A stretch of DNA of 64,000 nucleotides from the NCBI RefSeq assembly GCF_036507355.1, contig NZ_AP027877.1; one strand, given 5' to 3'. Below the pieces are notes generated by a model. The model did no database searches. It had not been told where the DNA came from and was given only the letters and a program-made list of their open reading frames with translations. The stretch is from Escherichia coli (GTDB taxonomy: Bacteria; Pseudomonadota; Gammaproteobacteria; Enterobacterales; Enterobacteriaceae). This document shows, piece by piece, positions 45,884 through 62,744 of this stretch. Position numbers and translations under genes: made by a program. How positions within the stretch are numbered: position 1 is the stretch's first letter; every line of letters starts with the position of its first letter.

Positions 45884-45904
45884 TCGTACAGGGTAGTACA
45901 AATA

Positions 45905-45936
45905 AAAAAGGCACGTCAGATGACGTGCCTTTTTTC
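45905..45936 (+). terminator. Intrinsic terminator downstream of aspA
   Basis: aaaaaaggcacgtca-ga-tgacgtgcctttttt: 10-bp stem with flanking A/T runs. Confidence 0.7.
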
Positions 45937-46000
45937 TTGTGAGCAGTAACTTAAAAATAACAATCTAATATCAACTTGTTAAAAAACAAGGAAGGCTAAT

Positions 46001-57821: not shown

Positions 57822-58057
57822 CTGTCGTAAAAACAATTATTTATGAATAAATTAACTTTCAGTTTATAACACTAGCAAATCGATATTAATAAGTCATTTA
57901 AACCATTTTGATGGTTATTTATTAGTGATATCAACTTGAGGTAAGCGTTAGTTTCGATAAGATAAACTGAGTTACTAATAGTCGAGGCAGATAATACAGT
58001 GTACCGATCTGTCTCTTTATCTACGCTAAATTGAAAGCTGGATTTAGAGGAACCAAA

Positions 58058-59575
58058 ATGTCTGAACAAGAAACACGGGGAGCCAATGAGGCTATTGATT
58101 TTAACGATGAACTGAGAAATCGCCGCGAAAAACTGGCGGCACTACGTCAGCAAGGTGTGGCGTTTCCCAATGATTTTCGCCGCGACCATACCTCTGACCA
58201 GTTGCACGAAGAGTTTGATGCGAAGGATAACCAGGAACTGGAATCCTTAAACATTGAAGTCTCGGTTGCTGGCCGAATGATGACCCGTCGTATCATGGGG
58301 AAAGCCTCCTTTGTAACGTTGCAGGATGTCGGTGGCCGTATTCAACTGTACGTCGCACGAGATAGCCTGCCAGAAGGTGTTTATAACGATCAGTTTAAAA
58401 AATGGGATCTGGGTGACATTATCGGTGCCCGCGGTACGCTGTTTAAGACGCAAACGGGTGAGCTTTCCATTCACTGTACTGAGCTGCGTCTGCTGACTAA
58501 AGCACTACGTCCTTTACCAGATAAATTCCATGGTCTGCAGGATCAGGAAGTTCGTTATCGTCAACGTTATCTGGACCTCATCGCTAACGATAAATCCCGT
58601 CAAACGTTTGTTGTCCGTTCAAAAATTCTGGCCGCTATCCGTCAGTTCATGGTCGCGCGCGGCTTTATGGAAGTAGAAACCCCGATGATGCAGGTAATTC
58701 CAGGTGGGGCATCTGCTCGCCCGTTTATTACCCATCATAATGCTCTGGATTTAGATATGTATCTGCGTATCGCGCCGGAGCTGTATCTGAAACGTCTGGT
58801 TGTAGGCGGTTTTGAACGGGTATTCGAAATCAACCGTAACTTCCGTAATGAAGGTATTTCTGTTCGCCATAATCCTGAGTTCACAATGATGGAACTCTAC
58901 ATGGCGTATGCGGATTACCACGATTTGATTGAACTGACAGAGTCACTGTTCCGCACCCTGGCACAAGAGGTTCTGGGTACCACTAAAGTCACTTATGGCG
59001 AGCATGTGTTTGATTTCGGCAAACCGTTTGAAAAACTCACCATGCGCGAAGCAATCAAAAAATATCGTCCAGAAACCGATATGGCCGACCTGGATAATTT
59101 TGATGCTGCTAAAGCATTAGCTGAATCTATCGGTATTACGGTAGAGAAAAGCTGGGGGCTGGGACGTATTGTCACGGAGATCTTTGATGAAGTGGCAGAA
59201 GCACATCTGATTCAGCCAACCTTTATTACGGAATATCCGGCAGAAGTGTCACCGCTGGCACGCCGTAATGATGTTAACCCGGAAATCACCGACCGTTTTG
59301 AATTCTTCATCGGTGGTCGTGAAATCGGTAATGGTTTTAGCGAATTAAACGACGCAGAAGATCAGGCTGAACGTTTCCAGGAACAGGTTAATGCTAAAGC
59401 TGCAGGTGACGACGAAGCCATGTTCTATGACGAAGATTACGTGACTGCGCTGGAATATGGTCTGCCGCCAACCGCTGGTCTGGGTATTGGTATCGACCGA
59501 ATGATTATGCTGTTCACAAACAGTCATACTATTCGCGACGTTATTCTCTTCCCGGCGATGCGCCCACAGAAATAA
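58058..59575 (+). CDS. lysU: Lysine--tRNA ligase, heat-inducible isoform
   Basis: ATG at 58058 ([40 protein letters not shown]..., 505 aa); class II aaRS. Confidence 0.95.
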
Positions 59576-59588
59576 ATTTCACTTTAAT

Positions 59589-59618
59589 GAACGAAGCAGT
59601 CAGGCGACTGCTTCGTTC
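59589..59618. terminator. Perfect 13-bp stem hairpin between the convergent lysU and ghoT (likely bidirectional terminator)
   Basis: gaacgaagcagtc-aggc-gactgcttcgttc. Confidence 0.5.
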
Positions 59619-59693
59619 GTCGTTCCGCAAATCCAGTTTTGAGGAGAGACGCTTCGTTTCACGATAACCAGCGGGTCCACTCAACTACAGCTC

Positions 59694-59867
59694 CTAAAAG
59701 AGAGAAAAAAGTAATGCCACAGGCAGACTCATTGGCCAGGTTATTCCGACCAGGAATGCACTAAGTAAACGAATATGTGTTTTCTCATGTGAGATAAACC
59801 AGATAATGACAAAGGATATGTTCACACCAATCACATAAAAAATTAATATTTTAGAGAATAGTGCCAT
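59694..59867 (-). CDS. ghoT: Type V toxin GhoT (small membrane-lytic peptide)
   Basis: Hand-translated 57-aa ORF MALFSKILIFYVIGVNISFVIIWFISHEKTHIRLLSAFLVGITWPMSLPVALLFSLF; below the ORF-track cutoff. Confidence 0.85.
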   Translation of the reverse strand: MALFSKILIFYVIGVNISFVIIWFISHEKTHIRLLSAFLVGITWPMSLPVALLFSLF

Positions 59868-59894
59868 TTTTTATGTTCTTCTTATCCTTCCTGG

Positions 59895-60191
59895 CTACTT
59901 GTAAAACTGACGGAAATAGTCATCAACTGTCATAATGTTGAGGTCAAAGTCAATATCCGGTAAGTCTAAGCATTTAAGCCTGATTAAATCTTCGATTTCA
60001 CTTGCGGCTAACGATGTCGTTATTGCGAAGGAGTTTTCATTCAATTGTCGTGGTATCCCATATTCATCAGCCACGATAGAGGAGAAATTCATATCATACA
60101 TCAATGATCTTAACCTTAAGAACACTGAGGAATAAGATGATGGATAATCAAAAGAAACAACATAAGTATTGAACTTGTTTTTACCTTCCAT
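59895..60191 (-). CDS. ghoS: Type V antitoxin GhoS (endoribonuclease cleaving ghoT mRNA)
   Basis: 98-aa ORF MEGKNKFNTYVVSFDYPSSYSSVFLRLRSLMYDMNFSSIVADEYGIP... immediately upstream of ghoT. Confidence 0.87.
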   Translation of the reverse strand: MEGKNKFNTYVVSFDYPSSYSSVFLRLRSLMYDMNFSSIVADEYGIPRQLNENSFAITTSLAASEIEDLIRLKCLDLPDIDFDLNIMTVDDYFRQFYK

Positions 60192-60417
60192 AATATGACT
60201 CCTATCAATATTGAACGCTCTGGGGACGCAAAACTTATTAACCCCGATTGATGATTCTCATATAGGAGATATTCTTTTTTTTGCTCAGTAAAGGGGATGA
60301 CTTGGGACAAAAAAACGCGCTCTCTGCCCATTCTTTGTGCATCCCCCTACCCTTCAGATGCTCTCCTGCATCACACCGTGGAGAGCATGAAAAATATCGT
60401 GAATCTGTACTCTCCCA

Positions 60418-60690
60418 TCAACTGCGAATATCATCATACTCCCGCGTTTTATCAAATTCGTGTTTCGCAAATGGACATAATGGGATAATTTTTCGTTTTT
60501 CCCGACGCATTTTTTCCACGACTTTCGCAACCAGCTGTTTACCAATCCCTTGCCCTTTCAGGCTTTCATCGACATCGGTATGTTCGATAATCGCTAAATT
60601 CTCTCCGGTCGGCACAAAGACAATTTCAGCGATTTGCTTGCCCTGTTCATCATTAATGTAAAATTTATTGTAGCCTTCGCGTATTTCCAT
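60418..60690 (-). CDS. yjdJ: GNAT-like small protein YjdJ
   Basis: 90-aa [56 protein letters not shown]... Confidence 0.8.
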
Positions 60691-60701
60691 TTTACCCTCG
60701 C

Positions 60702-60932
60702 TTATTTATGACGGTATTTCAGCGCGCCGCTCGGGCACGTATCAATCACTTTAACCACAGTGGTAACGTCGACTTCATCCGGCATGATCCACGGCTTTCG
60801 TTTGAGATTAAATAACTTGCCGTTGCCACGTACGCAATTGCCAGAATGCTGACATATCGCAGTATTGAAATAGACATCGATCTTTTCGCCGGTATAACAG
60901 CGATAACCCCCGTCCAGTAGCGCCTGATCCAT
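60702..60932 (-). CDS. yjdI: Small Cys-rich protein YjdI
   Basis: 76-aa [42 protein letters not shown]... Confidence 0.8.
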
Positions 60933-61112: not shown

Positions 61113-62744
61113 ATGAGACATTCATTGCCCTACCGCATGTTACGCAAACGTCCGATGAAATTGAGTACCACAGTGATCTTAATGGTCAGCGCGGTACTGT
61201 TCTCGGTGCTATTGGTGGTGCATCTGATTTACTTCTCGCAAATCAGTGATATGACGCGAGACGGGCTAGCCAACAAGGCACTGGCAGTGGCGCGTACTCT
61301 CGCCGACTCGCCGGAAATCCGTCAGGGCTTGCAGAAAAAACCGCAGGAGAGTGGAATCCAGGCCATCGCGGAAGCCGTGCGCAAACGCAACGATCTGCTG
61401 TTTATTGTCGTTACCGATATGCAAAGTCTTCGCTATTCGCATCCTGAAGCCCAGCGTATTGGTCAGCCATTTAAAGGTGATGACATCCTTAAGGCGCTGA
61501 ATGGCGAAGAAAATGTCGCTATCAATCGCGGTTTTCTGGCGCAGGCTTTACGCGTATTTACCCCCATCTACGATGAAAATCATAAACAAATTGGCGTGGT
61601 GGCGATCGGCCTTGAGTTAAGCCGCGTGACCCAACAGATCAATGACAGTCGCTGGAGCATTATCTGGTCAGTATTATTTGGCATGCTGGTCGGACTGATT
61701 GGCACCTGCATTCTGGTTAAAGTACTGAAAAAAATCCTTTTCGGCCTGGAACCCTACGAAATCTCCACGCTGTTTGAGCAACGCCAGGCCATGTTGCAGT
61801 CTATCAAAGAAGGCGTCGTTGCCGTGGACGATCGCGGCGAGGTCACGCTGATCAACGATGCCGCACAAGAATTGCTGAATTACCGTAAGTCGCAGGACGA
61901 TGAGAAACTGTCGACGCTAAGCCACTCGTGGTCACAGGTGGTAGATGTCTCGGAAGTGTTACGCGACGGTACCCCGCGCCGCGACGAAGAGATTACGATT
62001 AAAGATCGGCTATTACTGATCAACACCGTTCCGGTGCGCAGTAATGGCGTTATCATCGGTGCCATTTCAACCTTCAGGGACAAAACTGAAGTACGTAAAC
62101 TGATGCAGCGACTCGACGGTCTGGTCAACTATGCTGATGCACTTCGTGAACGATCCCACGAATTTATGAATAAATTGCATGTGATTCTCGGATTATTGCA
62201 TCTGAAGAGTTATAAGCAGTTGGAAGATTACATTCTCAAAACAGCCAATAACTATCAGGAAGAGATTGGCTCTCTGCTGGGTAAGATCAAATCTCCGGTT
62301 ATCGCTGGTTTTTTAATCAGCAAGATTAACCGCGCGACCGATTTAGGCCATACGCTGATTTTAAACAGTGAAAGCCAGCTGCCAGACAGCGGCAGTGAGG
62401 ACCAGGTCGCGACGCTGATTACCACATTGGGAAATCTGATAGAAAACGCGCTGGAAGCATTAGGGCCGGAACCCGGAGGCGAAATTAGCGTAACATTGCA
62501 CTACCGTCACGGCTGGCTGCACTGTGAAGTTAATGATGATGGACCGGGGATCGCACCCGATAAAATCGATCACATTTTTGACAAAGGTGTCTCGACAAAA
62601 GGAAGCGAGCGAGGCGTCGGTTTAGCACTTGTCAAACAACAGGTAGAAAATCTCGGCGGCAGCATCGCCGTGGAATCGGAACCCGGGATTTTCACACAAT
62701 TTTTTGTCCAGATACCCTGGGACGGGGAGAGGTCGAACAGATGA
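61113..62744 (+). CDS. dcuS: C4-dicarboxylate sensor histidine kinase DcuS
   Basis: 543-aa ORF with two TM segments flanking a periplasmic PAS-like domain, H-box (SHEFMNKLHVI) and HATPase domain. Confidence 0.95.
   Translation: MRHSLPYRMLRKRPMKLSTTVILMVSAVLFSVLLVVHLIYFSQISDMTRDGLANKALAVARTLADSPEIRQGLQKKPQESGIQAIAEAVRKRNDLLFIVVTDMQSLRYSHPEAQRIGQPFKGDDILKALNGEENVAINRGFLAQALRVFTPIYDENHKQIGVVAIGLELSRVTQQINDSRWSIIWSVLFGMLVGLIGTCILVKVLKKILFGLEPYEISTLFEQRQAMLQSIKEGVVAVDDRGEVTLINDAAQELLNYRKSQDDEKLSTLSHSWSQVVDVSEVLRDGTPRRDEEITIKDRLLLINTVPVRSNGVIIGAISTFRDKTEVRKLMQRLDGLVNYADALRERSHEFMNKLHVILGLLHLKSYKQLEDYILKTANNYQEEIGSLLGKIKSPVIAGFLISKINRATDLGHTLILNSESQLPDSGSEDQVATLITTLGNLIENALEALGPEPGGEISVTLHYRHGWLHCEVNDDGPGIAPDKIDHIFDKGVSTKGSERGVGLALVKQQVENLGGSIAVESEPGIFTQFFVQIPWDGERSNR

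Follow-up and report, generated by a model that had tools for sequence, protein, structure and literature searches.

We examine here a 64,000-nucleotide stretch of Escherichia coli DNA (hereafter, the window), and within it the short region where two small genes, ghoT and ghoS, lie one behind the other on the minus strand. The RefSeq gene order at this locus is lysU> <ghoT <ghoS <yjdJ <yjdI dcuS>. On the plus strand, lysU (lysine-tRNA ligase, the inducible paralogue) extends over 58058..59575, as placed by annotation transfer, and converges on ghoT (yjdO; 59694..59867, minus strand), whose product is a membrane toxin of 57 aa, predicted to have two transmembrane segments. A 27-nt spacer (CCAGGAAGGATAAGAAGAACATAAAAA; 59868..59894, minus strand) separates ghoT from ghoS (yjdK; 59895..60191, minus strand), which encodes a 98-aa antitoxin, a Cas2-like endoribonuclease. 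Beyond ghoS follow yjdJ (60418-60690) and yjdI (60702-60932), both on the minus strand, and dcuS (61113-62744) on the plus strand. The start of lysU differs between sources: the open reading frame listing begins the gene at a TTG at position 58031 (514 aa), whereas the annotation starts it at an ATG, position 58058 (505 aa). The same locus (K-12 b4129) is called “lysS” by PGAP in most RefSeq strains.

We are very nearly certain that this is the ghoST operon of the E. coli chromosome, the system on which type V of the toxin-antitoxin classification was founded, and we found no sequence evidence against this identification. The surrounding 25 kb, a groL-cadCBA-dtpC-lysU-ghoTS-yjdJI-dcuSR region, shows 99.4% identity with E. 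coli chromosomes. A 901-bp query around the pair was matched in 5,341 of the 5,426 complete E. coli genomes (~98%), and the RefSeq names that lie under the match are “type V toxin-antitoxin system toxin GhoT” and “endoribonuclease antitoxin GhoS”; across the RefSeq annotations, the gene order is kept, with both genes annotated, in ~5,340 of the 5,426. The K-12 proteins GhoT and GhoS (YjdO and YjdK, b4559 and b4128) are both identical to those of the window, and the K-12 locus agrees with it in the 27-nt spacer, in the flanking genes lysU and yjdJ, and in the presence of an intergenic hairpin. Over the 951 bp that were compared, K-12 and the window differ at 12 single bases, none of which falls in ghoT. 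The window comes from the chromosome of an E. coli strain other than K-12. The pair is already described and annotated rather than new, and its discovery value is small: this is a textbook type V system, annotated in nearly every E. coli genome.

The ghoT and ghoS genes

The ghoT reading frame (59694-59867, minus strand) consists of 57 codons with an ATG start and zero internal stops, and its minus-strand translation is MALFSKILIFYVIGVNISFVIIWFISHEKTHIRLLSAFLVGITWPMSLPVALLFSLF. Its 174 nt match K-12 ghoT (b4559; L002 3909-4082, the annotated K-12 MG1655 record) at every base, and the exact protein is labelled GHOT_ECOLI in the protein collection. The Pfam family PF10753 (Toxin_GhoT_OrtT) is matched with E=8.9e-26 and 90.4 bits, against a cutoff of 22.1; the alignment spans residues 4-57 of the 57 and profile positions 1-55 of 55. 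A first-pass annotation, made from the letters of the window, had proposed that a 57-codon frame directly after ghoS on the minus strand encodes GhoT, a small hydrophobic peptide with two helices. Its coordinates, strand and hand translation reproduce exactly, the K-12 and Pfam matches bear out the name, and neither a frameshift or stop within 59694-59867 nor a lack of similarity to GhoT was found when both were checked. The same annotation attributed the absence of the gene from the list of open reading frames to its length, and 57 aa indeed falls under the 60-aa default of the lister. The ghoT case can thereby serve as a calibration point: a 60-aa cutoff hides real, characterised genes.

The hydrophobic character of the peptide is likewise as proposed. 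GhoT has a GRAVY value of 1.50, with hydrophobic segments at approximately residues 4-25 and 34-57, and the polar loop SHEKTHIR separates the two, the Kyte-Doolittle profile dropping below zero at residues 28-32. The two transmembrane segments are thus predicted from Kyte-Doolittle hydropathy, and the profile agrees with the two transmembrane domains described for the GhoT/OrtT family (PMC4344625). Residue 38 of GhoT is F, the position at which the F38R substitution abolishes toxicity in this family (PMC4344625).

Upstream of the toxin gene, the identity of ghoS is equally well supported, as the first-pass annotation had it. The protein matches Pfam PF11080 (GhoS) with E=6.1e-41 and 138.8 bits (cutoff 21), and all 98 of its 98 residues are identical to residues 3-100 of PDB 2LLZ chain A, which was deposited as “yjdK”. 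At the DNA level, the gene shows three base differences from K-12 b4128, all of them synonymous. Residue 28 is R (...VFLRLR28SLM...), and L25 and M31 also stand at the positions cited for GhoS in the work that reports the catalytic importance of Arg28 (PMC4010927). Published work reports that GhoS is homologous to Cas2 in structure and that the catalytic residues are conserved (PMC4010927). We take this likeness of fold from the literature, the protein encoded here being identical to the solved 2LLZ; the CRISPR context of Cas2 is absent at the ghoST locus. Among the NCBIfam models, there was no HMM match for either GhoS or GhoT, though PGAP names both genes.

A well-placed Shine-Dalgarno sequence, AGGAG, can be read directly 7 nt 5' of the ghoS ATG (60199..60203, minus strand). 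Its duplex with the anti-Shine-Dalgarno sequence has a computed energy of -6.8 kcal/mol, and it falls within the stretch that is conserved with a diverged ghoST-like module found elsewhere (L007, described below). In the opposite orientation, a 66-aa ATG frame lies antisense within ghoS (59935-60135, plus strand), and E. whittamii has the same frame (L010 1889-2089). The frame probably arises as a by-product of sequence conservation in ghoS.

The hairpin between lysU and ghoT

A hairpin, to which we assign no strand, lies between the convergent lysU and ghoT genes at 59589..59618, as found by inverted-repeat scanning and folding. Its two arms (59589-59601 and 59606-59618) are 13 nt long and 100% complementary around a 4-nt loop, with 7 G-C pairs among the 13 bp. 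The folding energy is -23.7 kcal/mol on the plus strand (lysU-sense) and -22.9 kcal/mol on the minus strand (ghoT-sense); in the lysU-sense RNA, the stem extends to 15 pairs including one G-U (59587-59620). Perfect 13-bp inverted repeats with a given short loop are expected at ~1e-3 per 64 kb (64000 x 4^-13). The structure was detected by a local inverted-repeat scan, and the scan of the whole window had omitted it.

The hairpin is kept in K-12 and in E. whittamii with single changes, and lysU is a neighbour in both. One of the K-12 differences lies at the base of the hairpin, at 59619 (plus-strand coordinates), with C in the window and T in K-12; it cuts the minus-strand stem by two pairs, from 15 to 13 bp, and leaves a G-U pair on the plus strand. 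Of the two single-base variants seen in the hairpin, one pairs only in lysU-sense RNA and the other only in ghoT-sense RNA. As they point in opposite ways, the variants give no information on the direction in which the hairpin is used.

According to the first-pass annotation, this was a strong hairpin shared with the convergent lysU. The first part of that statement stands, as the hairpin is real, has a perfect 13-bp stem, and is situated between the convergent genes; the word “shared” goes beyond the evidence. For both genes to use the hairpin, it would have to act as a bidirectional intrinsic terminator of lysU and ghoST, a reading that we consider rather unlikely, although several observations speak for it: this is the sole strong structure between the two convergent genes, it folds similarly on both strands, and it is conserved in K-12 and E. 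whittamii. Against this, however, a U-run is absent past the stem on both strands (CGTTCCGCAAAT on the plus strand, TAAAGTGAAATT on the minus strand), and a terminator scan of 59400-60700 returned 0 terminator-like sites. The position is also lopsided, with 11 nt to the lysU stop versus ~75 nt to the ghoT stop. Furthermore, the hairpin lies outside the 548 bp common to the window and the diverged ghoST module (L007), whose 3' flank has no such hairpin, and none of the papers searched mentions a terminator in connection with both ghoT and lysU. On the simplest reading, the hairpin probably belongs with the 3' end of lysU; it may also stop, stabilise or incidentally bound ghoST transcripts.

There is a further way to read a hairpin without a U-run as the 3' end of lysU, namely that ghoST has no terminator of its own and that the lysU and ghoST transcripts overlap as convergent antisense partners. 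We consider this very improbable, but it would have consequences for regulation. If it were true, ghoST transcripts would reach at least ~75 nt into the 3' region of lysU, and transcripts of lysU, which is stress-induced, could enter ghoT; transcriptional interference or RNase III cleavage would then provide extra control of ghoT besides cleavage by GhoS. Where ghoST transcripts end is, in any case, a minor question for toxin-antitoxin specialists.

Two other structures in the window can be set beside this one. Judged by blastn conservation with L007, the module ends on its 3' side with the 29 nt that follow the ghoT stop (59665..59693, minus strand), and these nucleotides run into the beginning of a weaker predicted stem-loop at ~59642-59683. 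Far from the locus, the inverted repeat at 45901-45938 (AAAAAAGGCACGTCA..TGACGTGCCTTTTTT) has the canonical A-tract and U-tract that the lysU/ghoT hairpin is without, and it looks like a true bidirectional intrinsic terminator.

Operon layout and the type V mechanism

The genes ghoS and ghoT are adjacent on the same strand, and a minus-strand scan of the 27-nt spacer between them found neither promoter-like nor terminator-like sites. A signal-free spacer fits a single ghoST transcript, and from this layout co-transcription is the likeliest arrangement, the antitoxin gene preceding that of the toxin. The literature likewise refers to the ghoST mRNA as one transcript (PMC4803016, PMC11783221). 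The two genes differ in their translation signals. In front of ghoT, the sole Shine-Dalgarno-like stretch, GGAAGGA, ends ~17 nt from the ATG, and this poor spacing suggests that independent initiation at ghoT would be weak.

Upstream of the pair, a promoter scan of the 226-nt spacer between yjdJ and ghoS gave no convincing promoter. The sole minus-strand promoter match (60455-60427, 9/12) falls within yjdJ, and the total of matches is no higher than in shuffled sequences. The predicted structure of the spacer is not unusual (z=-0.86), and when 59300-60700 was compared with Rfam at E<=1, neither strand matched a known RNA family. The spacer does contain an 8-9 bp hairpin without a U-run at 60359-60387 (minus strand, AUGCUCUCC...GGAGAGCAU), ~30 nt past the yjdJ stop; a base difference in K-12 disrupts one pair of its stem.

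For the mechanism, our reading of the DNA covers gene identity, arrangement, family membership, key residues and the distribution of GCU triplets; the RNase activity, its specificity for ghoT mRNA, the membrane damage and the control by MqsR are taken solely from the literature, in the form of later papers that come mostly from the same laboratories. In these papers, GhoT/GhoS is the first member of type V, and GhoS cleaves the ghoT mRNA (PMC4344625, PMC4010927, PMC4905990, PMC4803016). The antitoxin is stated to neutralise the toxin by cleaving its message, without binding the toxin itself (PMC4344625, PMC4905990, PMC5086665). GhoS is described as stable, as not binding the toxin and as not regulating transcription (PMC4344625, PMC4010927, PMC4905990, PMC4803016, PMC5086665), and GhoT as a membrane-damaging peptide whose action yields ghost cells and lowered ATP (PMC4344625, PMC4905990). 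Under stress, MqsR is reported to degrade the ghoS part of the transcript (PMC4803016, PMC4905990). The part that MqsRA plays in stress responses is contested (PMC6918082; noted in PMC11783221).

The distribution of GCT triplets in the window can be compared with this last point. There are three in ghoS (coding-sequence positions 121, 213 and 221) and zero in ghoT, and the presence of GCU sites in ghoS with none in ghoT is the published rationale for the sparing of ghoT by MqsR (PMC4803016, PMC4905990). The absence from ghoT is insignificant on its own, as 2.15 triplets are expected in 174 nt (Poisson P(0) ~0.12), and diverged ghoT copies do contain GCT sites.

Put together with the published work, the locus would operate as follows. 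A minus-strand ghoS-ghoT transcript would be made with the antitoxin gene leading. GhoS, a stable Cas2-like endoribonuclease, would cut the ghoT part of this mRNA, so that little toxin is translated. GhoT, an inner-membrane peptide of 57 aa with two hydrophobic helices, would, when made, damage the membrane, lower ATP and slow growth. Under stress, the GCU-specific RNase MqsR would cut the ghoS part at its three sites and spare ghoT, shifting the balance toward the toxin.

Relatives and a second ghoST-like pair

Close relatives of the pair appear to be confined to a narrow group. For GhoS, 47 protein clusters were retrieved from among 5.8 billion proteins, and all those named by organism are from E. 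coli or Shigella. A pattern of the ghoT DNA matched only E. coli and E. whittamii among ~100,000 species representatives. Both searches need exact words, and distant relatives may be missed by them. Both genes have ~35% G+C versus a window average of 50.6%; this low G+C content and the homologues, found only in Escherichia and Shigella, are in keeping with a small AT-rich insert that is limited to one lineage and lies between yjdJ and lysU. The idea that ghoS is carried by mobile elements was considered and rejected. Nine matches to ghoS (99-100% identity) were labelled as plasmids, but all are non-mobilizable E. coli records, 94 kb to 4.9 Mb in length, and the three longer than 4.7 Mb are evidently chromosomes filed as plasmids.

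In 14 of the 5,426 complete E. coli genomes, a second ghoST-like pair is present outside the region studied here, downstream of an extra speF-potE and beside rarD (L004 972-1457; L007 3001-3497; L011 4256-4759). Gene order is the same as in the window and the spacer is similar; the GhoS-like proteins are 65-77% identical and the GhoT-like proteins share 47 of 57-58 residues. The second pair differs from that of the window in its locus (potE/rarD versus lysU/yjdJ), in lacking a downstream hairpin, and in having GCT sites in its ghoT copies. In the L007 lineage, both genes are intact (75 of 98 residues identical for GhoS, 47 of 57 for GhoT), and blastn aligns L007 with 60212..59665 of the window at 81% identity; these 548 nt begin 21 nt 5' of the ghoS ATG and end 29 nt past the ghoT stop. 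The other lineage, at 65% identity, has a different fate. In its ghoS-like gene, K stands in place of R28, and the gene is often truncated (91 aa), called a pseudogene by PGAP, or joined in frame to the toxin (fusions of 135 and 167 aa), whereas its 58-aa toxin frame is intact.

The order of ghoS then ghoT, with a spacer of 26-27 nt, is kept both in the 77%/82%-identical copy at another locus (L007) and in E. whittamii. This pairing across loci and species implies that ghoS and ghoT travel as a unit. A relative of the toxin, the orphan OrtT (YdcX), belongs to the same family (PF10753), is also 57 aa long with two predicted transmembrane segments, and has the conserved F38. OrtT is reported to be 63% identical to GhoT, to have no antitoxin gene beside it and not to be neutralised by GhoS (PMC4344625). 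The frame in the window is GhoT rather than OrtT, and ghoS lies immediately upstream of it. Taken together, the existence of this orphan (PMC4344625) and the decayed ghoS-like genes of the second pair suggest that genes of the GhoT family can be maintained where no intact GhoS accompanies them. We read the decay as a mild caution on how obligatory the type V relation is; it leaves the identity of the genes in the window unaffected. The loss of the antitoxin from the second pair is itself a small matter, mainly for specialists in toxin-antitoxin systems.

These observations bear on whether the genes, being ghoS and ghoT, form a true toxin-antitoxin pair at native expression levels. One could hold that they do not, and that the type V relation appears mainly on overexpression: GhoT would be a small membrane protein kept low mainly by weak translation initiation, and GhoS an RNase with other or broader targets. 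The distant Shine-Dalgarno-like stretch before ghoT is in line with such a view, as are the orphan state of OrtT and the second-pair lineage in which the antitoxin gene has its R28 replaced and is broken or fused while the toxin frame survives. Overproduction of GhoS, moreover, reportedly lowers ~20 other transcripts too (PMC4010927), and transcriptional induction of a toxin-antitoxin operon has been claimed not necessarily to bring toxin activity, a point for which LeRoux et al. 2020 is cited in PMC11783221. However, the adjacency and spacer are maintained across loci and species, and the pair is retained in the great majority of complete E. coli genomes (the ~98% given above). Experiments, as cited in PMC4344625 and PMC4010927, also describe GhoS neutralising GhoT by mRNA cleavage. 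We think it quite improbable that the two genes are unpaired in this sense, and favor the type V operon. That the 57-codon frame is merely a chance opening can be dismissed outright: it is short and the region is AT-rich (35% GC), but stop codons abound in AT-rich DNA and make a long chance frame less likely, the Pfam match (8.9e-26) extends across its whole length, the gene is annotated and its protein experimentally studied (PMC4344625), and, decisively, a frame of 57-58 codons is preserved in homologues at 72-81% DNA identity with 47 of 57-58 residues identical.

One genome offers a natural deletion of the locus. In E. coli ET479 (L003 4600-6104), an IS1 element and an integrase remnant beside tRNA-Phe stand in place of cadCBA, dtpC, lysU, ghoTS and the 3' part of yjdJ, so that the toxin-antitoxin pair is gone along with its neighbours.
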